From the NCBI GenBank assembly GCA_963804995.1, contig CAWDSK010000001.1:371305-435304 (forward strand): a stretch of DNA of 64,000 nt. The letters are read 5' to 3'. This document shows, piece after piece, positions 52,365 through 64,000 of this stretch (positions are counted from its first letter, which is position 1; every line of letters starts with the position of its first letter). The notes under the pieces were generated by a model. That model saw nothing but the letters and a program-made list of their open reading frames with translations. It had not been told where the DNA came from and searched no databases. Made by a program: the position numbers and the translations under genes. The DNA is from an uncultured Acidobacteriota bacterium. Lineage in GTDB: Bacteria > Acidobacteriota > Terriglobia > UBA7540.

Positions 52365-54379
52365 CCTGCCTTTCGCACTTCCACCCGCTACCGGGCTGAT
52401 TTTGGCAGCTTGCGGTGCACAAGGTCTTTGCCTTCAATGGGCGCGGGTTGAAGAGTGCTTGTAGGCCCGACCTACCCTCTTTTCTGGGGCGCGAAGGTCT
52501 GGCATTCTGGGGCGTGCACCTGAAGATTCATCGACGCAAAAAGGACGGCAAGGAACATCGTTATTTCAGCATCGTCGAGAGTCGGCGCGTGTCGCGCTCG
52601 AAGGTCGTGCATCGGACGGTGCTGTATCTGGGCGAAATCAACGACAGCCAACAATCCGCGTGGCGCAAGACGCTGGAGGTTTTTGACGAGGACCGTCGCG
52701 TCCTCGCGTCCCTGAGCCTCTTCCCGGAGGACCGCGAACTTCCTGCGGATGCTGTGGACGGCGTACAAGTGAAGTTGAGTGAAATGCGCGTTGAGCGGCC
52801 GCGCACCTTCGGTGGCTGTTGGTTGGGCTGCGAGCTGTGGCGCCAGTTGAAGCTGGACGAGTTCTGGCAGGCGAGGTTGCCGGAAGGGCGCGAGGGAGTT
52901 CCGTGGGAGAAGGTGCTACGGCTGCTGGTGGTGAACCGGTTGATCGAGCCGGGCAGCGAATTCCGTGTGCATCGGCACTGGTTCGATCAGACCGCCATGG
53001 CCGAGTTGCTGGCAGTGAACTTCGCGGTGGCCGAGAAGGACCGGCTCTATCGTTGTCTGGATCGAATACTGGCGCACAAGGCGGAGTTGTTCCAGCACCT
53101 GCGGCTGCGGTGGCAAGACCTCTTTGCGGCGCGCTTTGATCTGCTCCTCTACGATCTCACCAGCACCTATGTGGAAGGAGAGGCGGAAGCGATTCCCAAA
53201 GCCCGCCACGGTTACAGCCGGGACGGGCGGTTCGACTGTCGGCAGGTGGTGATCGCCCTGGTGCTGACGCCGGAAGGTTTCCCGCTGGCCTACGAAGTGA
53301 TGGAGGGGAATACTTCCGACCGGAACAGCTTGCGCGGTTTTCTGGACAAGATCGAGAGCGTGTACGGCAAGGCACGGCGGGTGTGGATGATGGATCGGGG
53401 AGTTCCCAGTGAAGAACTGCTGGCGGAGATGCGCACCCCGGGGCGGGAGATGTTTTACCTGGTGGGGACGCCACGGGGCAAGATCCGGCAGTACGAAGCG
53501 AAGTGGACGGAACTGCCGTGGCGGAAGGTGCGCGAGTCGGTAGAGGTGAAACTGTTCGCGGAGGAAGGCGAGTTGTATGTGCTGGCGAAGAGCGCAGGCC
53601 GCCAGGCGAAAGAGATGGCCATCCGTCGACGCAAGCTGGCACGGCTGTTGTGGAGGCTGCGGGCCTTGCGGCGCGTGTGTCCGACGCGTGATGCGTTGCT
53701 GATGAAGATCGGAGCAGCCAAGAGTGAAGCCGGACGGGCCTTCGGTTTCGTGAAGATCAGCGTGCCCAAGGCCCAGGAAGAAGTGACTCGCCAGACCTTC
53801 CAGTTCCGGCTCGAGCGCAGCAAGTTGGAGGAAGCGGAGCGGCGCGATGGACATTATCTGTTGCGCACCAATCTGACGGGGGAAAATCCCGAGGTGTTGT
53901 GGGACCGCTACATGCAACTGGCGCAGATCGAAGCGGCCTTTAAGTGTTTGAAGAGTGAGCTGGGAATTCGGCCGATTTATCATCAAATAGAACATCGCGT
54001 CGAGGCCCACATCCTCATTGCCTTTCTGGCGTACGGCTTGTGGGTGACGCTGAAACAGCGTCTGCAGGCCCACGCTCCGGGCCTGACGCCGAAAGCGGTG
54101 CTGGAGAAGCTGGCGGGCATGCAGATGCTCGATGTGTCTTTCCCGACCACGGATGGGCGCCGATTAGTGATGCCCCGCTACACCGAGCCGACACCCGAAC
54201 AAAAGCTCCTGTTGCACGAACTGCAGCTCGTGCTCCCCACTCAGCCACCGCCCAGGATCACGGTCCAGCCGGAAATCTTTCCTGCTGGAATGCTGCGTTT
54301 GTAGGCCAGACCTTGGCAATGCCTGTACTGAAAAGAAGCGAGTTAACCCAACTCAACACCCTGAAGTGCGAAAGTTCGG
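52365..54379 (+). mobile_element. IS1634-like (IS4 superfamily) insertion sequence, 2015 bp
   Basis: Terminal IRs are cctgcctttcgcacttcc (52365-52382) and ctgaagtgcgaaagttcgg (54361-54379), matching at 15 of 18 aligned positions. It is flanked by CTAG direct repeats at 52361-52364 and 54380-54383 and encodes a single transposase ORF. Confidence 0.8.
52514..54304 (+). CDS. IS1634-family DDE transposase
   Basis: VHLKIHRRKKDGKEHRYFSIVESRRVSRSKVVHRTVLYLGEI is an N-terminus typical of IS1634 transposases. DDE elements are LLLYDLTSTYVEG, VWMMDRGVPSEE and YMQLAQIEAAFKCLKSELGIRPIYH. The ORF track starts at GTG 52415. Confidence 0.8.
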   Translation: MHLKIHRRKKDGKEHRYFSIVESRRVSRSKVVHRTVLYLGEINDSQQSAWRKTLEVFDEDRRVLASLSLFPEDRELPADAVDGVQVKLSEMRVERPRTFGGCWLGCELWRQLKLDEFWQARLPEGREGVPWEKVLRLLVVNRLIEPGSEFRVHRHWFDQTAMAELLAVNFAVAEKDRLYRCLDRILAHKAELFQHLRLRWQDLFAARFDLLLYDLTSTYVEGEAEAIPKARHGYSRDGRFDCRQVVIALVLTPEGFPLAYEVMEGNTSDRNSLRGFLDKIESVYGKARRVWMMDRGVPSEELLAEMRTPGREMFYLVGTPRGKIRQYEAKWTELPWRKVRESVEVKLFAEEGELYVLAKSAGRQAKEMAIRRRKLARLLWRLRALRRVCPTRDALLMKIGAAKSEAGRAFGFVKISVPKAQEEVTRQTFQFRLERSKLEEAERRDGHYLLRTNLTGENPEVLWDRYMQLAQIEAAFKCLKSELGIRPIYHQIEHRVEAHILIAFLAYGLWVTLKQRLQAHAPGLTPKAVLEKLAGMQMLDVSFPTTDGRRLVMPRYTEPTPEQKLLLHELQLVLPTQPPPRITVQPEIFPAGMLRL

Positions 54380-57372
54380 CTAGACAGGTAGTTCAGGTCG
54401 TTATAGATGGTAGTGTCGTTCATGGCCTTCGACAGGGTATAGGCAGCTTGAAAACTCAGGCCATGAGAGCTCTGCCGGCGGAGGGTCACCTGAAGACCGT
54501 TATACCGGGACTCGCCGGTAAACTGGCTGTCGGTCAAGGCGGAGGGCGTCTCTCCCATGAACGGAACGCGCAGTGCCGCGTTGACCGCGGTATTGGTCGA
54601 GATGCAATCGGCAGGCGCTCCCGTGTAGCCACAGTTGACCGGCTTATTGGGACTCGCGAGCAGCGGCTGGTTCAGGCCCACACCGACCAGCAGGTGGTCA
54701 CCGTACGAGCCGACATAGCCAACGTCCAGGGTGAAGGCTCGGGGCAGTTTGGTCTGGATGCTCAGGTTGAATTGCTGGAGCTGGGGGATTTTGTATTCCG
54801 GGCCGGCGATGCGGTCAGAAAGCTGGGAAGTCGGCGTGCGCGCCACAAAGCCCAGCGTGGTCGTCGGAAACGGCTTCGCGAGATCGGACTGGCCATTGCT
54901 TGAGTCCGTGTTAGTGAAGCCTTGCGCAAACGGCGCCGCGGTGAACAGGGGAGCGCTGGCGGCGTTGGCGCTGAAAGTGGGCGCCTGGTAAAACCATCCG
55001 TACCCGCCGCGCACCGCCGCGCGCCCGGCGGCTCCGAATGGCTGCCACGCAAAACCAAAACGGGGGGCGAACTTCCCAAGCGGCGTGTTGTTCTGATAGA
55101 AACTGCGGTTGGGACCGGTCAATACACCCGAGGGCGGTGGACCGAACGGCTTGCCCGTGTACGGATTGATGAGGGCCGGATTGTAGTTCGCCGCCACCAC
55201 GTCGCCGACCAGCGTTCCTGCGGTCGGTGGAATCGGCACTTGCTGCAACAGCGACGGCCAGACGTTCCCGATCGTACCTGCCCTGTCGAACGCGGCGCCC
55301 ACATACTCCCAGCGCAGGCCGGCATTGAGCGTAAGCCGCGGCGTCACCTTGAAATCGTCCTGCGCGAACGTGGCCCCGTAATTGTGCCGGTATTGATACT
55401 GAACCTGGCCCTCCGGCCCCACCCCCTCGTTGGCTCTCACCGTCTCGATGTTGCTGCGGCCGCCGGGGCTTTGGTTATCCGCCGCACTGAGGCCCACCAG
55501 CAAGTCTTCGAACGTTTCGAACGTGACCTTTCCGCGTGCGGCGCCGGTGTCCAGCCGGTCGTTGTGCTGCATAAGAAAAACTCCACCCACCCGGGCATGG
55601 TGCCTTCCGTGCACCAAGGAGAGATTGTCCGTCCACGCGAGCGTGTTCGTGTGCGTCGAGAAGTCATTGGCGCCGTTGCCGAAAAAGCGGAACGTTCCCA
55701 TGGGGCCCAGCATGGTGACCTCCGGGGGCAGCGGAAACAACGGGTCCACCGGGGTCATGCCGAAGGAACTCGCCGAGGGAGTGCCGACGCCGCGGGCCGG
55801 TTGGAAGGTGCGCGTGTAGGCAAAGCGCGCTTCGTTCGCCACCTTGGGCGTCAGAACCGAGGTTAGCTTGAGGGAGAGCGCCACGTCATGCGCGTGGAGC
55901 GCCTGGGGAGAACCGGCGCCCGGGATCACCGGGGTCACCGTCGCTCCGCCCGGCGCTCCCAGCGATCGGTACTGATTAATTCTTGAAAAGAAGCCGCGCC
56001 ACGACAAGGTGTTGACAGACAACGCCACATAGTCGCTGTTCGCCACGAAATGATCCTCGTTGTAATAGGACGGGAAGCTGAAGGACGAGAAACCCATGCC
56101 CGCATTGCTGCCGGACGGGATGATCGTTTGGGGTACCGGGATCAGGTATGTGCCATCGGGCAGCCGGGTTTGCAGGATGCTCAGGGCCACCGGATTGATG
56201 GGAGCGGTCGTGGCGGTATTCCGGTTCATGCAGTCCAGTTGCTTCCCACCGGCAAAGGTCAGATAGCGTGGGTCGGGCCCGCCCGCACCGGCGCCGCTTG
56301 TCAGCAGATGATTCGCCGGGCAGAACTCGGCCGCCAGCGCCGCCGCCGACCGGTCGCTCGTAAGAGGCGGAAGGATGACCGTGGCCACGGAGGTGGGGTC
56401 CAGACCGTTCACCTGCCGCGTTCCCTGGTAGGAGCCGAAAAAGAACCACTTATCCCGCAGGACCGGGCCGCCCAGCGTCACTCCGAACTGGTTTTGCTTC
56501 AGATTCGGTTTGGGTTGACCGGTGGCATTGCGAAAGAACGCATTGGCGTTGAAGATGTCGTTGCGCACAAATTCCCAGGCGGTGCCGTGATACCGGCTCT
56601 CTCCGCCGCGGGTGATCACGTTGGTGCTCGGCACCATCGCGCCATAGCCGGTGTCGTACTGCGAGGTCTGGATCTTGAACTCGGCGATGGCGTCGGGATT
56701 GGGGACGGTGCTGGGGGAGTAGGCTCCGTCGATGGTGTAGTTGCCTGCCGCCGTGCTTCCATTTACGTTGACCGTCTGGGTTCCTCTGCCCAGGGTCCCG
56801 GCATTGTTCACATCCGCGACCGTGCCCGAGGACATCGAGAGAAGCTGCGCAAAGTTGCGGGTGGTCAGCGGCACGCCGGTGATGGTTTTATGATCCACCA
56901 GCGTGCCTGACGACGAGGCAGCCAGGCTCAAGCGGCAGTTGCACTCAACCCTCTCCCGGGGGTTGCCGCGTTCCAGGCTGGCATCCAGGGTGGGATCTTC
57001 CGAAACGTTGATGGCGATCGATGGGGCTTGCGCGGTCTTGAATCCGCGTGCGGAAAAGCTCACACGGTAGACGCCTGGGGCAAGCAACGAGAAGCGATAG
57101 CTTCCGTCTTCCCCCGAGATCATGGTGAGGGTCTGATTCGTCGCGTTGTTTGTCAGCACGACTTTTGTACCCGGCACGGCTCTGTTTTGGAAGGTGATGG
57201 TCCCGCCTAACGCTCCCGTGGCGTCAGACTGGGCGCACAGAAAACTCACGCCCCCCATGATCAAGAGGGCTCCGAACGCCGCGCTGAGGAAATTCCGTCT
57301 CCCGCCAAACCCGACTGAGGACCGGTTGCTGCACTCTGCAAAATGAGCGATGTTGCGCCAATGAAATGTCAT
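54380..57372 (-). pseudogene. TonB-dependent receptor (CarboxypepD_reg-like N-terminus), N-terminal approximately 1000 codons, truncated by the IS
   Basis: Signal peptide, then GTITFQNRAVPGTKVVLTNNATNQTLTMISGEDGSYRFSLLAPGVYRVSF (carboxypeptidase-regulatory-like fold) and a long beta-barrel. The native sequence stops at ...YNDLNYL, after which 13 IS-derived codons run to the stop at 54343. Start is taken at ATG 57372. Confidence 0.8.
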
Positions 57373-57617
57373 TAACTGTCCAGGATGAAATGCGTCATTC
57401 CCCCGGCTCTCCAGGCCGGTAATCGCACAATTGAACTGCGCGTCGCCGTCGGAACCGTCAGATTCGGGGCGGGACATTATTCCTCTTGTTTTGCCACCCA
57501 ACCGTTGTCCCGGTAACGAAGATTGCCGGCCTCGGCACTCTACCGTGGAACATTCTTCGGTGCTGAATTACTGCATGGCGTTGGAACGGGGCGGGCAAGG
57601 TAGAAATTGGCGTCCAA

Positions 57618-57854
57618 TCAGGGTGCCGCTAACCGCAGGTCCGCGGTGACGGGCAATTCAAAGAGGTCGCTCCGCAGCAGGCGCGTGGAGAAGAACATTA
57701 CTTCCAGGTTCTCCACTTGGCGCGTGGCGGGATTCAGGCGCGCCACCACATCGTCTCCCAATTCTTCCGATTCCTGGGCGGGATAGGGCGGGCACTTGTC
57801 AATGTGCAGGATGTCGGCTTCCCGGTCGTACTTAAAGGTTAACTTCGCGTCCAT
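57618..57854 (-). CDS. DUF2283-family protein (putative antitoxin)
   Basis: From ATG 57854: MDAKLTFKYDREADILHIDK... matches the MKxxYDxEADxLYI signature of DUF2283. It overlaps the upstream gene by 16 nt. Confidence 0.65.
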   Translation of the reverse strand: MDAKLTFKYDREADILHIDKCPPYPAQESEELGDDVVARLNPATRQVENLEVMFFSTRLLRSDLFELPVTADLRLAAP

Positions 57855-58159
57855 TCCACGACTCCTTGCCCAAGTTTGCTGACCACGTATGCGGTTATCA
57901 CCCAGTGGCGGCGAGTCCTGCATTCGCTTACGACCACCACAACAACATGCTTACCACCCATGATGTCATCAAACCAGCGTGAGAACAAGCGGGCATCTGC
58001 GGAGCGGGCGCTCTGCCGGACCTCGTGAGGTTCTGCCAACGTCAAACGGATGCGGTCGCGGATCTTGGGCAAAAGCTCCGGGTGGCGATCCCCGACGTGC
58101 TTTTCTCGTTCTTCTGTAAGCTCTACTTCGCCCGCCAGGTACGGGCAGGAAAATCGCAC
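57839..58159 (-). CDS. Small toxin-like protein (DUF4258-like partner of DUF2283)
   Basis: 106 aa, VELTEEREKHVGDRHPELLPKIRDRIRLTLAEPHEVRQS...KHVVVVVVSE...WVITAYV. The layout recalls the toxin partners usually found upstream of DUF2283 genes. The family call is tentative. Confidence 0.45.
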   Translation of the reverse strand: MRFSCPYLAGEVELTEEREKHVGDRHPELLPKIRDRIRLTLAEPHEVRQSARSADARLFSRWFDDIMGGKHVVVVVVSECRTRRHWVITAYVVSKLGQGVVEWTRS

Positions 58160-58233
58160 TCGCTGGTCCCCTCAACATGCCGACATGGCACCACCTCAAC
58201 CACTACATGCGCTCCAGTGTATGCGCCGCTCGG

Positions 58234-58256
58234 GGTGGTCACAAACTGTGACCACC
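58234..58256. promoter_or_regulatory. Perfect 10-bp inverted repeat upstream of the toxin-like gene (candidate operator)
   Basis: ggtggtcaca-aac-tgtgaccacc lies 75-97 nt upstream of start 58159 on the minus strand. Confidence 0.3.
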
Positions 58257-58310
58257 TGTTTCGTGAAGTGCCGTTCCCTAACCCCTAATCCCGAGCCCCT
58301 AACCCCGATC

Positions 58311-58529
58311 TCACCACTCATCGCGCAGCTTTCTCTGCTCTGCGAGGGCGTCACCCTCCCACTGAAGCTTTCCTACCACATCAGCGAAATTGTATTTGGA
58401 CCCGTTGGGCTTTGGCGTGCTGCCCACCACCAGGACGAGTTCCACGGCGCCAGCCGGGAGTTCCACCGGCACATCCAGCCGCAACCGCCCGTCCGGCCCC
58501 ACCTCACCTTTAGTCTTCACGACCTGCAT
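58311..58529 (-). CDS. Solitary antitoxin-like protein (AbrB/VapB-like N-terminus)
   Basis: 72 aa, MQVVKTKGEVGPDGRLRLDVPVELPAGAVELVLVV...FADVVGKLQWEGDALAEQRKLRDEW. The C-terminal G.L.W.GDa...QR.lRdEW tail is common in antitoxins paired with PIN toxins. No toxin ORF lies adjacent. Confidence 0.5.
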   Translation of the reverse strand: MQVVKTKGEVGPDGRLRLDVPVELPAGAVELVLVVGSTPKPNGSKYNFADVVGKLQWEGDALAEQRKLRDEW

Positions 58530-58755
58530 AGGACGCCCTCCCCGCGCGCGCCAACGGACTCACGCTTGGATTGAGTGTACCACGGGGCCCGGGAAGTCTA
58601 TAGTTGACAGTCGAAAGTTGAAAGTCAAGCCGCGCCCTAACCACGAGCCCACCGGGAATGGGATTCGCCCTGTCCACTGCCCCAGTCCCCAGCACCTCTC
58701 CTTCCCGAACCCCTAATCCCGAATCCCTATTCCCTGTATTTCCCATGCTATGAAT

Positions 58756-58986
58756 GTGGATACGCGATGAAGAGCCGCACCGGAACGCAAAATGCGCGTA
58801 CCTGTGCGTTACCAACTGCAAGGCATTAGAAAGACTCCCCTCCTGGATCAGGAGGGGTGGCGCGCCGAGCGCCGGGGTGGTCGATCAGAAGAAGGAGCCT
58901 ACCGCGTTACCTACTTGCCGGTTGACCGCGAGGGCTGCCTTTCTTGTGTTTAACTATCCACTGACCACTGACAACTAACCACTGCC
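58756..58986. repeat. Repeat unit U, copy 1 (contains a family-D repeat at 58834-58883); abuts cysteine-desulfurase fragment 1
   Basis: gtgga...gaagagccgcaccggaacgcaaaatgcgcg...gttacctacttgccggttgaccgcgagggc...ccactgaccactgacaactaaccactgcc is homologous to 60793-60958. Confidence 0.6.
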
Positions 58987-58989
58987 GTT

Positions 58990-59553
58990 TTGACCGGCCA
59001 CAAATTTCATGCGCCGAAAGGCATTGGCGCGCTGTACGTTCGTCGCAAATCGCCATTTTCGCCATTGGTCTACGGCGGGCATCAAGAGCGCAACCGGCGC
59101 GGTGGCACGGAAAGCGTGCCACTAATTGCGGGAATGGGGAAAGCTGCCGAACTGGCCCGCAAACACTTGCCGGACTATGAGCAGAAAGTGCGCCCGTTGA
59201 GGGACGAACTTGAGGAAGGTATCTTAAGTTCTATTCCCAATACGGAATTGAACGGACACAAAACGCAGCGGATTGCCAACACGACAAACATCACTTTTCA
59301 CGGCATCGAATCCGAAGCGCTGCTGATCTTGCTCGATAAGGAAGGCATCTGTGCATCGTCCGGCTCAGCGTGCCTTGCCGACTCCGACGAGCCCTCGCAC
59401 GTGATTAAGGCGATGAAGCCGGAGGCCATAGCGTCGCGACAAATGATTCGGTTCTCAATTGGTGCCGCCACGGCCAGAGAGGGAATCGAAGTGGTGGTCA
59501 ACACCGTAAAGTGCCAGGCGGCTGCTTTGCGCGACGTGTCGTCGCCGCATTGA
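58990..59553 (+). pseudogene. Cysteine desulfurase (NifS/IscS family), C-terminal 187-codon fragment
   Basis: LTGHKFHAPKGIGALYVRR...GGTESVPLIAGMGKAAELA...ASSGSACLADSDEPSHVIKAM...IRFSIG. It starts at the PLP-lysine motif and has no N-terminal half. Confidence 0.8.
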
Positions 59554-59615
59554 AGGAAGATTAGGGGAGTTATCACCCGGTCGCAGCTCCGGCGATTTCT
59601 CGCGCCCCGGCATGC

Positions 59616-60689
59616 TCAGCCCTTCGCCATCGCGATTCGGCTCCGCGCCAGCCGGACCGCTTCGTGCAGTTTGCGCTCTAATTCCTTCTTCGGCAACAAC
59701 TCTGTCCAGTAGCTGGCCACGTGAATACCGCTCTTTTCGAGTTCCAGCAGGGCGACGTGCTCCGTACTCTTGCCGGCGCAAAGGATCATTCCCAACGGTG
59801 CAGCCTCCTGTGGTTCCGCCGCGTACCGTTTCAGCCACCCCAGGTAGAGTTCCATCTGCCCTTTGTCCGCGGCTTCAAACTGCCCGATTTTCAATTCGAT
59901 GGCGATCAGGCGACAGAGCTTGCGGTGATAGAAAAGCAGGTCGAGGTGGTAGTCACGGTCGTCAATCTGCATGCGCAACTGGCGGGCTACAAAGCAGAAC
60001 CCCACCCCCAGCTCCAAGATGAACGACTCCATCTCCCGCAGAATGGCCGACTCCAAATCCTTCTCCGCATAGGTATCTTTCAACCCCAGAAAATCGAGGA
60101 CGTAGGGATCGCGGAAGACCAGGTCGGGTGTGAGCTTGTATTCGTCACGCAACTCCCTAAGCTCACGGCGGATCAGTTTGTCCGGCTTTTTGGAAAGCGC
60201 CGTGCGCTCGTAAAGCATCGACTGGATTTTCTGCTGGAGGGTACGTGTGCTCCAGTTCTCCACCCGGCACATTTCGGTGTAGAAATCCCGCTTGAGATGA
60301 TCCTGAATAGGAATGAGCCGCAGGAAGTGGGTCCAGCCCAATTGTCGTAGCAGCGATACGACAATTTCCCGGTCCGGGTAGGCCTCCGCGAACTGGATCA
60401 TCCGGCGCAGGTTCTTCTCGCCGAATCCCCGGCCGAAATCCCTCTCCAATTGTGCACTCAGTGCGGACACAATCTGTTCGCCATACTCCGCGCGTTTTTC
60501 CTTTAGGATGTCTTGCCGGATGCGCTGCCCCACATGCCAGTAAAGCGTGGTTAGCGCCGCGTCTACCGCGCGGGCGGCGCCTTGGCGGGCTTCTGCAATC
60601 AGTTCCCGCACGTCGGCCAGCAACGCCGCGAGCCCTTGGGGGCGTAAAGCCAGGGCCTTCTTTCTCCCGGGCGGTTTTCGTCCTATCAT
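59616..60689 (-). CDS. yhcG: YhcG-family (DUF1016) PD-(D/E)xK nuclease-domain protein
   Basis: 357 aa, LYWHVGQRI...EYGEQIVSALSAQL...FGRGFGEKNLRRMIQFAEAYPD...WSTRTLQQKI...DPYVLDFLGL...E.DLE.AI...FILELG.GFCFVARQ...DLLFYHRKLCRLIAIELKIG. Confidence 0.85.
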   Translation of the reverse strand: MIGRKPPGRKKALALRPQGLAALLADVRELIAEARQGAARAVDAALTTLYWHVGQRIRQDILKEKRAEYGEQIVSALSAQLERDFGRGFGEKNLRRMIQFAEAYPDREIVVSLLRQLGWTHFLRLIPIQDHLKRDFYTEMCRVENWSTRTLQQKIQSMLYERTALSKKPDKLIRRELRELRDEYKLTPDLVFRDPYVLDFLGLKDTYAEKDLESAILREMESFILELGVGFCFVARQLRMQIDDRDYHLDLLFYHRKLCRLIAIELKIGQFEAADKGQMELYLGWLKRYAAEPQEAAPLGMILCAGKSTEHVALLELEKSGIHVASYWTELLPKKELERKLHEAVRLARSRIAMAKG

Positions 60690-60792
60690 GGCGCAAGCTC
60701 CAAGCTATAACGCGGCCAGCACCCGGCTTTTGCCAGCGCGGGCTTGCCTTGCAGTTTACCTAATCACCAAACACTAACCACTGTCAACTGCC

Positions 60793-60958
60793 GTGGAAGA
60801 AGACCCGCACAGGAGCGCGAAATGCGCGCACCCGCGCGCTACAAATTCGGCCCTGGTAACCCCGGGCTACCGGGTTACCTACCTGCCGGTTGACCGCGAG
60901 GGCTTGCTGCTTTCTACCGGTTCAACTGACCACTAACCACTAATCACTGACCACTGCC
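60793..60958. repeat. Repeat unit U, copy 2; abuts cysteine-desulfurase fragment 2
   Basis: gtggaagaagacccgcacaggagcgcgaaatgcgcg...gttacctacctgccggttgaccgcgagggc...caactgaccactaaccactaatcactgaccactgcc. Confidence 0.6.
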
Positions 60959-60964
60959 TTTCCG

Positions 60965-61234
60965 ATGTGGGCGAATAACGAAACGGGTGTGTTGTTCCCT
61001 GTCGAGTCAATCGCGGAAATTTGCCAGTCGCGGGGCGTGCCGTATCACTGCGACGCGGTGCAAGCAGCGGGCAAGGTGGAGATTGATGTGCAAAAGATCC
61101 CGGCGGACTACCTTTCGCTAACCGGCCACAAGTTCCACGCGCCGAAAGGCATTGGCGCACTCTACGTCCGTCGCAAATCACCATTTTCGCCATTGGTCTA
61201 CGGCGGGCATCAAGAACGGAACCGGCGCGGCGGC
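60965..61234 (+). pseudogene. Cysteine desulfurase (NifS/IscS family), internal 90-codon fragment
   Basis: MWANNETGVLFPVESIAEICQSRGVPYHCDAVQAAGKVEIDVQKIPADYLSLTGHKFHAPKGIGALYVRRKSPFSPLVYGGHQERNRRGG. Homology ends at 61234; the ORF then reads into unrelated sequence up to 61276. Confidence 0.8.
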
Positions 61235-61259
61235 ATAGGGGCGGTACCCGGCGAAAAGT

Positions 61260-61784
61260 CTATTTCGACCATTTGAAGGCTAGGACGGTGATCGCCCAAG
61301 GCAATATGGCAAACATCATTGCGGTATAGGCACGCTTCAAGTACTTAAACTTATTATTGATGATCTCTGAATTTCGGTGGCATTGCTCCAAGAGATCTTG
61401 CAAATGCTGATCAGTCGTTCGGCATGACCAGCACTGACTGAATTCGTTAAACGAGTTGCCAGCGATCGACCCGAAAAACAATAACGATTTAGACGGACCT
61501 CTGGTGCGTGGGTAGTTGGCGCAGTGAATAAAGGTGAAGCCGGTCGCTAGCATACCTATGGTCGTCGCGAAGGCAACGACCGCCCACCACCTCCATTTTT
61601 CGGGCTCTGGTGCAAGTGACACTGCAACTCCTAGCATTCCAGTGTGCATTCCCAAGACAACCGAAATTTTGGTGTCCACTTTGCTACCCCACTGAAGCAC
61701 TCTATCGAGGTTTTTCTCAGCGTACGCGATCTGTTCGCTCAGGGGCCATCCGGCAACGACTTCGGCATGTACATTATTTTTCAT
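61260..61784 (-). CDS. Small multi-TM protein resembling the DUF5706 / Pycsar-effector (PycTM-like) family
   Basis: From ATG 61784: ...AEKNLDRVLQWGSKVDTKISVVLGMHTGMLGVAVSL...WWAVVAFATTIGMLATGFTFIHCANYPRTRG...LLFFGSIA...NSEIINNKFKYLKRAYTAMMFAILPWAITVLAF. The family call comes from my memory of its signature (aD.K-TM-TM-PR...yfg.i...KY..v..a-TM). Confidence 0.6.
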   Translation of the reverse strand: MKNNVHAEVVAGWPLSEQIAYAEKNLDRVLQWGSKVDTKISVVLGMHTGMLGVAVSLAPEPEKWRWWAVVAFATTIGMLATGFTFIHCANYPRTRGPSKSLLFFGSIAGNSFNEFSQCWSCRTTDQHLQDLLEQCHRNSEIINNKFKYLKRAYTAMMFAILPWAITVLAFKWSK

Positions 61785-61813
61785 AAGACCAAACTGATAG
61801 AGCAGTGGGTTTG

Positions 61814-62293
61814 CTAGTCCAATTCTGCGATTCGCTGTCTGAACAATTCCACGAGCTCGTCTGAAATCCAAGCGCCCGCGCGGATCATTTCTTCTAAGAT
61901 TCTGATTCCATCGTTCCCCGTAATTTCCCCAATCTCAATTGCGTATTCCAGCACTCCGATTGCGCCGGCGACCGGAATTCCAAATTCCTCCGCGCAATTC
62001 CGAGCCAGCTTGTCGTTTGTCAAAACAGCGGCCCCTCTAGACCATGCCACCACAATGGCACCAGATTCACCGAGCCCCAGTCCGGGTCTGCCCTCACGCA
62101 AACGTTGAAATCTCTCCCAGTCCTCCTCGCTGACCAGAGCTACCACCTCCGCACTTGGCATAGCTATGGAAGCACGATCGAGCTCATCTTGCACGAAGTC
62201 GGAAACCAAGAGACGCCCACTAAAAACTCGCTCGAGTGTGTCGAGCGAGCCGGAACGCTGAAAGTCCACGACAACGCTTGAGTCAAGCGACAC
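61814..62293 (-). CDS. PIN-like protein (COG2405 / DUF3368 type)
   Basis: Candidate GTG start at 62293, 10 nt after the upstream stop. Motifs are VSLDSSVVVDF...LVSDFVQDEL...GLGESGAIVVA...VLTNDKLARNCAEEFGIPVAGAIGVL. The ORF track starts at 62368, inside the upstream gene. Confidence 0.6.
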   Translation of the reverse strand: MSLDSSVVVDFQRSGSLDTLERVFSGRLLVSDFVQDELDRASIAMPSAEVVALVSEEDWERFQRLREGRPGLGLGESGAIVVAWSRGAAVLTNDKLARNCAEEFGIPVAGAIGVLEYAIEIGEITGNDGIRILEEMIRAGAWISDELVELFRQRIAELD

Positions 62294-62303
62294 GCGGGTT
62301 ATG

Positions 62304-63464
62304 CTAAGCCGGTGCAAAATCCGTTTCCCTTCTCCATTCCTGGGTCTTAGCCCGCGCTTCGCTGACATTTACGCTAAGTAGTTCGGCGAGTTTTCCGAGG
62401 GACACCATACTGTTGAGAGCGGCCTTTCTCGCGAGATGCGCGAAGCGGCTTGACCTCTCCCAAGCTTCGATCATCGTCTCGTCGAGCGGTACAAACTCCT
62501 TTCTAGGATCGCTCTGTCGCTTTTCCACCTCCTCCATTAGTCGCCGCTGGTCATCGTCTGAGATTAAGCGGAGGTCCCGAACTCTGCGCAACATCATCTG
62601 CGCACTGACTTGGAAATATTGCTTCAAGAAAACTATGTCTTCCAAGCCAACGGTCTTGTCCCCAACGTCCCGATGTAAAACGTCTCGAAGTCCCACTTCC
62701 GGAACTAGAAACGAAGCCGCGAAACAGTCTGCCATCTTCTCGGGCACACTGTCCTTTGGTAGACCGCCGGTCGGTGCGGCACTGCTATACATAGGCCGAT
62801 GCATCAGCAGGTGTCCGCATTCGTGCGCTAATGAGAAGACTTGGCGCTCTACCGTGTTGGCGCTGTTGACTAAGATACAGAGACCATAGTTAGAAGAGTA
62901 CGCGGATAACGCAAAAACCTCATCTCCCTCCATCTTGTGCCGTAAGATCCTGACCCCCTGCTCATCGAGCAACTTAAAGATGTTTTCAATCGGATCACGC
63001 TGGCCGAGTCCTAGGCGTTCACGCTCAGAAAGTGCAACTTGGACCGCGTAATCGAACGGCTTCGAATGCGCCCCGGGTCCGCCAGAGTAGTCGGGAAGCT
63101 GGAGTAGATTTTCGGCTCCGACAATTTCCTCTAGCTCACGATACGCTTTGGAATGCCTTTCAAATGATAAGCGGGCGTTCCCGGGAGCGGTCGCCTCCGC
63201 GACAGCCCGGTACAATAACGCCATAGTATCTTGGTCCCCTCTGAAAAAATCAGCGACCGGACAACCAAGAAGGCGAGAAGCTACCAGCAACTTGCTGCTG
63301 TCGATGGCCGTATGACCATTCTCGATGGCGCTGACCGTGGCCCGGGAGAGTCCGATTTTAGCGGCAAACTCCTCTTGGGATAGACCCGCTAACTCCCTTG
63401 CTCTCTTTAGATTTCGTGCGATGATCTCTTTCAATTTCCCTCCAGTGTATAAAATCCTTGACAT
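62304..63464 (-). CDS. Fusion of an XRE-family HTH and an ImmA/IrrE (COG2856, M78) zinc metallopeptidase
   Basis: HTH is LKRARELAGLSQEEFAAKIGLSRATVSAIENG and the peptidase HExxH is SLAHECGHLLMH, followed by a roughly 130-aa C-terminal extension. The true start may be TTG 63434 (a GGAGGG SD lies 3 nt upstream). Confidence 0.8.
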   Translation of the reverse strand: MSRILYTGGKLKEIIARNLKRARELAGLSQEEFAAKIGLSRATVSAIENGHTAIDSSKLLVASRLLGCPVADFFRGDQDTMALLYRAVAEATAPGNARLSFERHSKAYRELEEIVGAENLLQLPDYSGGPGAHSKPFDYAVQVALSERERLGLGQRDPIENIFKLLDEQGVRILRHKMEGDEVFALSAYSSNYGLCILVNSANTVERQVFSLAHECGHLLMHRPMYSSAAPTGGLPKDSVPEKMADCFAASFLVPEVGLRDVLHRDVGDKTVGLEDIVFLKQYFQVSAQMMLRRVRDLRLISDDDQRRLMEEVEKRQSDPRKEFVPLDETMIEAWERSSRFAHLARKAALNSMVSLGKLAELLSVNVSEARAKTQEWRRETDFAPA

Positions 63465-63493
63465 ATAATTGATCTACTTGTTGTGATTGTCAA
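63465..63493 (-). promoter_or_regulatory. Candidate sigma-70 promoter for the XRE-peptidase operon, in a 54-nt divergent intergenic region
   Basis: On the minus strand: TTGACA (63493-63488), a 17-nt spacer, then AATTAT (63470-63465). This places the transcription start downstream of ATG 63464 and favours the TTG 63434 start. Confidence 0.35.
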
Positions 63494-63518
63494 GTTAATT
63501 CGACATTAGGAGTATCTT

Positions 63519-64000
63519 ATGTCTTGGAACTTTGATCGAAGCAAGAAACGAGTCGAGGCAGAAGCGAAGCGCCTAGCGCATGCGGGCATCAGCGTCAAGC
63601 CCCTCACCCGCGAAATGGACTTAACCAACCTCTCTCCCACAGAAGCTAGGCAAGTTAACGGCGTCCATCTCTATTCAAACGTGGAGAATCTGGAAGAACT
63701 GCTAACGTCCGAGGCCCTTCGAAAGAATAATTTCAGGGCATTGCACAGATTCTTTCAAGTCTTCAGGAGTGAACAGCGCCGCATCATTCAAAACGTCTTC
63801 GAAGGGGACAAGATCCAAGTTCAGGGCCCAAAGTTTCACGGGCTAATTTTCAAGCCTTATGGGAAGGACTCTGAGATCGCTTGGCGCTCCATTCTCTGCT
63901 CAAGTGCTTTACACCTTTTAGCGGTAAGGGCGCTTCCCGAGGTGTTTCCGGGATACCCACCGATCGTCTCTGCTGCAGGTCTAGAGCTGGGAAAAACCGT
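63519..64000 (+). CDS. Hypothetical protein, 5' partial (160 codons; continues past the window end)
   Basis: ATG 63519 with AGGAG 7-11 nt upstream. The frame is open to the window edge: MSWNFDRSKKRVEAEAKRLAHAGISVKPLTREMDLTNLSPTEARQVNGVHLYSNVENLEELL... It is not in the ORF track because no stop is reached. Confidence 0.6.
   Translation, partial: MSWNFDRSKKRVEAEAKRLAHAGISVKPLTREMDLTNLSPTEARQVNGVHLYSNVENLEELLTSEALRKNNFRALHRFFQVFRSEQRRIIQNVFEGDKIQVQGPKFHGLIFKPYGKDSEIAWRSILCSSALHLLAVRALPEVFPGYPPIVSAAGLELGKT

Follow-up and report, generated by a model that had tools for sequence, protein, structure and literature searches.

How do abortive-infection systems silence a lethal effector until it is needed? 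A locus that bears on this open question lies at the right-hand end (positions 61235 to 64000) of a 64,000-nucleotide (nt) stretch of contig CAWDSK010000001.1 from an uncultured Acidobacteriota bacterium, the whole of which is referred to here as the window. The locus probably carries four genes of an acidobacterial, five-gene abortive-infection system of the Pycsar (cyclic-pyrimidine) type, in which two operons diverge from a control region of 84 nt and a fused repressor-protease and a PIN-like protein act as a controller that holds the effector gene. The plus-strand operon would consist of the cyclase gene pycC followed, to judge from relatives, by the gene of an E2-like protein with a SEC-C motif. 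The minus-strand operon would encode an XRE helix-turn-helix (HTH) domain fused to an M78 peptidase (XRE-M78), a coupled PIN protein and the effector PycTM (Table 1). The three consecutive minus-strand open reading frames (ORFs) from 61260 to 63464 described in the original prediction are present in the ORF listing, and a plus-strand ORF opens at 63519.

The product of the last minus-strand gene, which had been likened to the DUF5706 family of Pycsar effectors, indeed belongs to it: it matches Pfam PF18967 with an E-value of 2.9e-14 (53.8 bits versus a cut-off of 27.2), and in PADLOC it matches the 2TM effector (2.1e-46) and PycTM (2.4e-31) models. Three transmembrane (TM) helices are predicted (residues 40–58, 68–86 and 152–170), and 15 homologues all share an unchanged EQCHRNSEI motif. 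A public protein, P0001, is 100% identical. Homologues are rare, with 16 in the protein collection and none found with the PycTM alignment in 185,579 GTDB representative genomes. Between the PIN gene and pycTM, which share a strand, there are 29 nt and no predicted promoter or terminator, and the proposed co-transcription of effector and regulator is upheld. The cyclase and effector genes, on opposite strands and separated by two genes, do not form one operon.

The divergent gene starting at 63519, previously left as unknown, encodes the N-terminus of a Pycsar cyclase. Its 160 codons match the PADLOC PycC model PDLC00765 (1.8e-30, over model positions 1–128 of 477), and the fragment is 62–72% identical to the N-termini of the full-length PycC proteins of 513 amino acids (aa) in the related loci L001 and L017. 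The 513-aa PycC of relatives matches the same model end to end (9e-98), aligns over its full length to PDB entry 6yii_A (6e-37) and over its C-terminal half to 7r65, and displays an internal duplication with two tandem cyclase-like domains. Because this gene is pycC, a signal-generating enzyme is encoded only 84 nt from the three minus-strand genes. This distance is counted from the corrected start of the regulator (see below) and replaces the 54 nt given earlier.

The arrangement is shared by relatives. The closest PycTM homologues (64–68% identity) lie on contigs from independent JGI, ENA and Logan samples, whose gene order was read where the contig was long enough. It consists of the 223-aa E2-like protein and PycC (513 aa) encoded on one strand, and of XRE-M78 (377 aa), a DUF3368 protein and PycTM, in that order, on the other. 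The five-gene architecture recurs in four sub-lineages from independent metagenomes, namely the window, L017, L001–L004 and L005–L007 with L019. The 223-aa protein encoded after PycC has no Pfam match and is recognized by the CBASS (cyclic-oligonucleotide-based antiphage signalling system) E2 models of PADLOC (1.7e-13). It contains an invariant Cys in an H..LCL context and a SEC-C zinc motif at its end, and an hhalign alignment of low probability suggests that it shares an H..LCL / W..k..y.r.G.WPG core, across the Cys motif, with E2-CBASS proteins.

These relatives bear directly on the earlier reading of the locus, according to which XRE-M78, the PIN protein and the DUF5706 protein form a self-contained and undescribed defence system of three genes, with a membrane effector that works independently of any second-messenger synthase. 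The three genes do form a tight operon conserved in the four sub-lineages, and toxins of RosmerTA systems can be membrane-depolarising proteins (PMC10440598). However, pycC is divergently adjacent in every locus with the three genes that extends upstream of XRE-M78, the next-closest PycTM homologues are found in PycC-E2-PycTM or PycTM-PycC operons, and PycTM is a member of a family activated by cyclic pyrimidines (Pfam PF18967). The triad is thus half of a five-gene Pycsar locus kept in relatives, and we give its independent action very little credence.

A sister locus, L020 (PycC 57%, E2 56% and PycTM 50% identity), carries PycC, E2 and PycTM in one operon, with separate capH (HTH_3) and capP (PADLOC 8.3e-35) genes divergently upstream. 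The XRE-M78/PIN pair occupies exactly the position of capH and capP in L020. The simplest history suggested by these sequences would start from a CapH/CapP-controlled PycC-E2-PycTM ancestor, in which an XRE-M78/PIN cassette took the place of the separate controller genes and captured the effector gene, pycTM moving behind it. More distant PycTM homologues (35–48% identity) occur inside defence islands as plain two-gene pairs, with a short PycC encoded after PycTM. PycTM was also considered as an RmrT-type toxin of an RmrA-like antitoxin; this assignment was rejected, as L020 carries PycTM within its PycC-E2-PycTM operon.

Table 1. Features of the locus, of its control region and of the adjoining part of the window
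Feature	Position	Strand	Description	Basis
pycTM	61260..61784	-	174 aa; last gene of the minus-strand operon	PF18967, PADLOC
PIN, VapC-like gene (COG2405/DUF3368 class; PADLOC PDC-S70)	61814..62317	-	167 aa from TTG 62317	PADLOC, fold
XRE HTH-M78 (ImmA/IrrE) zinc peptidase fusion gene	62304..63434	-	First gene of the minus-strand operon	Pfam, PADLOC
pycC, first 160 codons	63519..64000	+	Cut by the window end; AGGAG at 63508-63512	PADLOC PycC
Shine-Dalgarno GGAGGG of XRE-M78	63438..63443	-	3 nt upstream of TTG; invariant in the 4-locus alignment, present in 11 loci	
Third operator half-site TGTCAA (candidate)	63458..63463	-	Over -10/+1 of the regulator promoter; TATGTCAAG invariant in 4 loci	
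Predicted sigma-70-type promoter of the XRE-M78/PIN/PycTM operon	63465..63493	-	TTGACA, 17 nt, AATTAT; 10/12 positions	Consensus scan
Candidate operator, 18-bp palindrome TGTCGA-N6-TTGACA	63488-63505		TGTCGAATTAACTTGACA	
Cysteine desulfurase fragment, left boundary	60965..61249	+	Residues 144-238 of 376	Aminotran_5 2.4e-24 (Pfam)
Second cysteine desulfurase fragment	58990-59535		Residues 195-376	
Repeat elements of 200-290 nt with the fragments that they precede	58690-59535, 60740-61249; also 57591-57617			
DUF1016_N + YhcG PD-(D/E)XK nuclease gene	59616-60689	-	Between the two cysteine desulfurase fragments	PADLOC candidate PDC-S02 1.7e-127
Small toxin-antitoxin-like ORFs	57618-58529	-	DUF2283 protein, 57618-57923, overlapping a 106-aa ORF, 57839-58159; 72-aa ORF, 58311-58529	
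DDE transposase gene	52415-54304			

The regulator, its PIN partner and their control region

XRE-M78 is, as had been predicted, a fusion of an XRE HTH domain (HTH_3, 4.6e-16) with an M78 peptidase domain (Peptidase_M78, 2e-16; both Pfam) that retains an intact HECGH motif. Eleven relatives share this motif as well as E..MA..FAA.FLVP further downstream. The likeness to a fused CapH/CapP is also borne out, with PADLOC matches to capP (2.5e-17) and capH (5.6e-5). The capP match is limited to the peptidase core (model positions 52–152 of 242). Fourteen RmrA models match nearly the full length of the protein, the best being PDLC03949 (2.1e-38, residues 17–370), and the spr1629 repressor/antitoxin model of NCBIfam matches with 3.8e-24, below its cut-off. 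The C-terminus (residues ~300–376, positions 62304–62540) is strongly conserved, with the pattern ..RF.HLA+KAAL....SLGKLAELL...V.EA+...Q.WR+, and resembles a second helix-turn-helix-like segment or one for partner binding. PDB entry 9vzy_A, a 393-aa HTH cro/C1-type protein, aligns to residues 19–309 only.

Translation of XRE-M78 more likely begins at TTG 63434, giving 376 aa, than at ATG 63464 as previously assigned. In 11 related genes a conserved Shine-Dalgarno sequence, GGAGG(G), is followed after a few bases by [TG]TG and the residues K-E/Q-I-I, and the ATG upstream of the gene in L001 is out of frame, both of which support the later start. ATG 63464 itself falls inside the conserved operator/-10 element described below.

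The middle gene encodes a COG2405-type PIN-like protein, as first proposed; the assignment is supported by its match to PDC-S70 in PADLOC (2.3e-17) and by its fold. Direct Pfam matches of the window protein are marginal (DUF3368 with 22.6 bits, below the cut-off of 27.3; PIN with 0.056), and the precomputed annotation of all its homologues includes DUF3368. An AlphaFold model built on 23 homologues has a pLDDT (predicted local distance difference test) of 93.7, and its best PDB fold matches in Foldseek, 1y82, 5h4g, 3h87 and 2mdt, are all PIN/VapC proteins. One of these, 2mdt, is SSO1118, the structural representative of COG2405. A sequence-only PDB search did not identify the protein, while the fold search did. 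Residues D10, E37, E76, N93-D94 and E116 are invariant in the homologue alignment, and the nuclease site therefore looks intact.

The PIN gene had been placed 10 nt downstream of XRE-M78. Instead, it starts at TTG 62317 and overlaps the end of the XRE-M78 gene, including its stop codon, by 14 nt, which implies translational coupling of the two genes. Read from this TTG, the ORF matches a public 167-aa protein, P0017, with 100% identity, and most PIN homologues are likewise 167 aa long and begin with [ML]H[RK]L. No relatives were found among the viral contigs of IMG/VR with either the PycTM or the PIN alignment, and no match to the PIN protein was found among the plasmids of PLSDB; these searches thus provide no evidence for carriage by phages or plasmids.

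The 84-nt region between the two operons contains an 18-bp palindrome that is a candidate operator. Its consensus, TGTCRA-N6-TTGACA, has a single match in the 64 kb versus 0.01 expected, and every match to a looser motif, with TWGACA as the right half, in 40 fetched loci lies just upstream of an XRE-M78 gene. The right half of the palindrome is also the -35 hexamer of the predicted regulator promoter, the only promoter-like site that a consensus scan reported in 61100–64000, and this TTGACA is kept in all relatives. A third half-site covers the -10/+1 region of the same promoter; of 12 upstream regions read, 10 show conservation at this position. The spacers have diverged between loci in which the half-sites themselves do not vary, and the layout of the palindrome relative to the -35 hexamer, the Shine-Dalgarno sequence and the start codon is conserved in 11 loci. 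The arrangement is the signature of an autoregulatory operator that would be shared by the two divergent operons, and TGTCRA-N6-TTGACA provides a concrete, testable candidate for it.

A course of events can be proposed for the favoured Pycsar reading. In the resting cell, XRE-M78 would bind TGTCRA-N6-TTGACA and the third half-site, keeping both operons low. Phage infection or DNA damage would then activate the M78 protease and the repressor would be removed in cis or in trans, by analogy with the action of CapP on CapH, so that cyclase, E2-like protein, PIN and effector would rise together. PycC, activated by the phage, would make cyclic CMP (cCMP) or cyclic UMP (cUMP), upon which PycTM would damage the membrane and the infection would be aborted, as established for the family. 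The role of the PIN protein is the weakest step; it would most likely be a toxin restrained by XRE-M78, serving as an addiction module or as a back-up killing arm.

The XRE-M78/PIN pair beside other immune systems

Every PIN homologue at 49–58% identity has an XRE-M78 gene (56–61% identity) in front of it, and in the representative genomes these homologues occur only in Acidobacteria. Six of the seven distinct contexts of the pair are cyclic-nucleotide-type immune systems, the Pycsar locus being one of them. In L035, the pair diverges from a long PycC gene and is followed by PycTIR, a cyclic nucleotide monophosphate (cNMP)-binding TIR protein (4.4e-124), and by a short PycC. In L038 and L039, a cNMP-binding/cyclase-like protein, a 514-aa Guanylate_cyc protein and a SEC-C protein are encoded divergently, and an IS110 transposase gene follows PIN. 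The divergent operon of L032, L033 and L037 encodes a metallo-β-lactamase (MBL) hydrolase, a 49-aa ORF, E2-CBASS, ThiF and a JAB-like protein, with a 222-aa multi-TM protein encoded after PIN. L034 is a type III CBASS with divergent genes for a CD-NTase (cGAS/DncV-like nucleotidyltransferase; 9.4e-111), two HORMA proteins and TRIP13, and with genes for an HNH protein and then a PD-(D/E)XK protein after PIN. In L040, a type II-short CBASS lies on the same strand, PIN being followed by a 150-aa ORF, CD-NTase, E2-CBASS and SAVED. The seventh context, L036, consists of conjugative-element genes with no signalling operon, and a 25-codon remnant of the 222-aa gene follows PIN.

An effector-like gene follows the PIN gene in four of the six cyclic-nucleotide-type contexts: PycTM, PycTIR, the 222-aa membrane protein of the MBL loci and the HNH nuclease of the type III CBASS. 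It is conceivable, though we advance it tentatively, that XRE-M78/PIN is a portable "effector-custody" controller specific to cyclic-nucleotide immunity that has repeatedly captured an effector into a protease-releasable, autorepressed operon. Killing would then need two inputs, the second messenger on the one hand and de-repression with release of PIN on the other. If true, this logic would be a form of regulation not described for CapH/CapP, CapW or CapK/CapS.

Several side observations concern these loci. The 49-aa ORF between the MBL and E2 genes (L032 5834–5983; also in L033 and L037) is 94% conserved. The 222-aa multi-TM protein encoded behind PIN (L032 8551–9219; also L033 and L037) matches nothing in Pfam or PADLOC and could serve as an effector in the MBL pathway. 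Three different systems with an XRE-M78/PIN pair have a gene for a large serine recombinase (Resolvase + Recombinase + Zn_ribbon_recom) no more than a few kb away (L033 14097–15812, L038 856–2938 and L040 10530–12317), with a DUF2924 gene in L038/L039 and L040, and in L036 the pair lies among TraG, VirB11-like and RepB genes. The recombinases and the conjugative genes of L036 suggest that systems associated with XRE-M78/PIN are carried on integrative or conjugative elements.

The contexts of the pair blur the line between toxin-antitoxin (TA) modules and regulators of immune operons, and the same pair can be read as an autonomous TA or RosmerTA-like module that came to lie between pycC-E2 and pycTM and has no part in regulating the Pycsar genes; PycTM would then be expressed by read-through or from its own promoter. 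The full-length RmrA matches and the spr1629 match of XRE-M78 fit such a module, as do the 14-nt gene overlap, the conserved catalytic residues of PIN and the occurrence of the pair without a signalling operon in L036. HTH-DUF955 + COG2405 modules have been described as TA-like (PMC5499597), and ImmA/Rosmer antitoxins pair with PIN-like toxins (PMC10440598). Nevertheless, we regard complete independence from the Pycsar genes as rather unlikely. The only Pycsar effector gene of the window lineage directly follows the PIN gene with no predicted promoter or terminator in between, the pair stands exactly where L020 has capH and capP, and it adjoins a cyclic-nucleotide-type system in all contexts other than L036. 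Neither PIN nor PycTM matches an RmrT model. Moreover, TA and regulatory roles are not mutually exclusive.

A number of points weigh against the Pycsar reading with XRE-M78 as its controller. Full-length RmrA antitoxin models match XRE-M78 far better than capP or capH in PADLOC, so that a toxin-antitoxin role is equally compatible with its sequence. Binding and repression by XRE-M78 at either promoter are deduced from sequence patterns, and no pycC promoter passed the consensus scan. As the window stops after 160 codons of pycC, both its catalytic C-terminal domain and the E2-like gene are extrapolated from relatives. The E2-like assignment is itself moderate (hhalign to E2-CBASS, E = 0.0011, 21% probability). 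In the sub-lineage of L005, L006, L007 and L019, pycC is split into ORFs of 220 aa and 297 aa at the junction of the two cyclase-like domains. Finally, L038 and L040 have no effector after the pair, and no signalling operon accompanies the pair in L036.

Boundaries and surroundings of the locus

The guanine-plus-cytosine (GC) content of 61235–64000 is 0.519, compared with 0.590 ± 0.017 (minimum 0.533) in windows of the same size across the rest of the 64 kb. The fall that marked the region as AT-rich is therefore real, although it is smaller than the 45–50% against 60–65% originally claimed. Orthologous cassettes of relatives are likewise low in GC (0.51–0.53 versus 0.55–0.60 in their flanks), and the description as a low-GC, defence-type module holds.

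On the left, the locus is bounded by a fragment of a cysteine desulfurase gene that ends 11 nt before the stop codon of pycTM. Similarity to cysteine desulfurase, said to end at 61234, does end at 61235 at the DNA level, but reaches 61249 at the protein level. The fragment is 90.5% identical to an intact gene of L001 (tblastn), and in L001 and L005–L006 the intact gene is convergent to pycTM. In the window it is broken up into the two pieces of Table 1, and residues 1–143 were not found in the window. The pieces share a 115-nt direct repeat (91% identity), and each is preceded by the same 200–290-nt repeat element, bounded by heptamer-like repeats (CCCTAAC..., CCACTGA...). The 115-nt repeat was considered as an att duplication and rejected, since the order of the gene fragments is incompatible with simple integration. 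Rearrangement, partial duplication or mis-assembly could account for the break-up. A nuclease gene of the DUF1016_N/YhcG type lies between the two pieces, and the TA-like ORFs and the DDE transposase gene further left mark the DNA upstream of the Pycsar locus as a variable region. There is no Rfam match in 57000–64000 at E ≤ 0.1 and no transfer RNA (tRNA) gene in 40–64 kb of the window, so that no tRNA-type integration site explains the island.

Such surroundings raise the question of whether the locus is the remnant of a system that has lost its function and is decaying, in a variable region that was rearranged and may be mis-assembled. In addition to the fragmented and partly duplicated cysteine desulfurase gene and the nearby insertion sequence (IS) and TA modules, the 160-aa PycC fragment, used as a query for homologues, retrieved partial ORFs only, many database matches to the PycC N-terminal domain being short ORFs, and pycC is split in L005–L007. 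By contrast, all four ORFs of the window are open with their catalytic motifs intact, and the regulatory elements are conserved between loci at 62–72% protein identity, which indicates purifying selection. Decay is thus very improbable. The pycC split (L005 2755–4298) is identical in contigs from independent samples and could represent either decay or a functional two-polypeptide cyclase.

In L001 (489–2717 and 7232–8362), L005 and L006, the cassette lies between a side with a DndC-like PAPS (phosphoadenosine phosphosulfate)-reductase protein (PADLOC DndC, 4.3e-126) and HNH_2, and a side with cysteine desulfurase. Cysteine desulfurase is a DndA-type activity. Together with the flanking DndC-like protein, it suggests that the Pycsar cassette may have been inserted into a Dnd-like DNA-modification cluster.

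Comparison with known systems

The individual parts are not undescribed, as had been thought: HTH-M78 fusions, HTH-M78/PIN pairs and Pycsar have all been reported, and standard tools would probably label the parts of the locus separately as Pycsar, RmrA and PDC-S70. To our knowledge, three families of controllers of such systems are known so far, CapW/BrxR, CapH+CapP and CapK+CapS. Within Acidobacteria, at least five kinds of cyclic-nucleotide defence are accompanied by the fused CapH-CapP/RmrA-like protein and its PIN partner. We found no description in the literature of an effector placed in the operon of its controller, nor of an XRE-M78/PIN cassette recurring across five system types.

Pycsar is defined as a cyclase with a cyclic-pyrimidine receptor (PMC11224242), and the locus resembles it in combining a PycC-family cyclase, in its long two-domain form, with a PF18967 PycTM effector. 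It differs in that the effector is encoded in a divergent operon behind regulator and PIN, and in the E2-like/SEC-C protein that follows the cyclase in relatives.

CapH and CapP respond to DNA damage and control the CBASS, Pycsar and DISARM operons next to them (PMC13373217). CapH is an HTH repressor, and CapP, made up of an M78 peptidase and a GAF domain, is a protease activated by single-stranded DNA. CapH-CapP fusions occur in 15 CBASS systems, and in one DISARM locus such a fusion has a vapC-like neighbour (bioRxiv 10.1101/2022.04.27.489752). As in those systems, the HTH and M78 peptidase domains are encoded upstream of, and divergently from, the signalling operon, with a candidate operator in the shared promoter region. 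By contrast, the capP match here covers the peptidase core only and the capH match is weak, and PIN and effector are co-transcribed with the regulator, an arrangement not described in bioRxiv 10.1101/2022.04.27.489752.

RmrA is the HTH/Zn-peptidase antitoxin of RosmerTA (bioRxiv 10.1101/2022.05.11.491447), and such antitoxins (RmrA; ImmA/Rosmer) pair with PIN-like or membrane-depolarising toxins (PMC10440598). XRE-M78 resembles this group through its matches to 14 RmrA models, up to 2.1e-38, whereas no RmrT model of PADLOC recognizes PIN or PycTM at E ≤ 0.1, and the module is embedded in a Pycsar locus and recurs beside cyclic-nucleotide systems. An HTH-DUF955 fusion directly upstream of a COG2405 PIN gene has been reported for Geobacillus among "three-component" TA-like modules (Matelska 2017, PMC5499597). 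The same order of an HTH-DUF955 (COG2856) fusion and a COG2405/DUF3368 PIN gene is found here, but those modules were described as stand-alone, while in this locus the pair is followed by a defence effector gene within its own operon and faces a divergent cyclase operon.

The E2-like gene directly after pycC in relatives recalls type II CBASS, type II Pycsar and MBL systems with E1-E2 (Cap2), and MBL-E2-ThiF-JAB operons are themselves flanked by the same XRE-M78/PIN pair. Relatives of the window nevertheless encode an E2-only protein with a SEC-C motif and neither E1 nor JAB. The unusual feature left by these comparisons is the position of the effector gene, which is downstream of the regulator/PIN pair and not of the cyclase.

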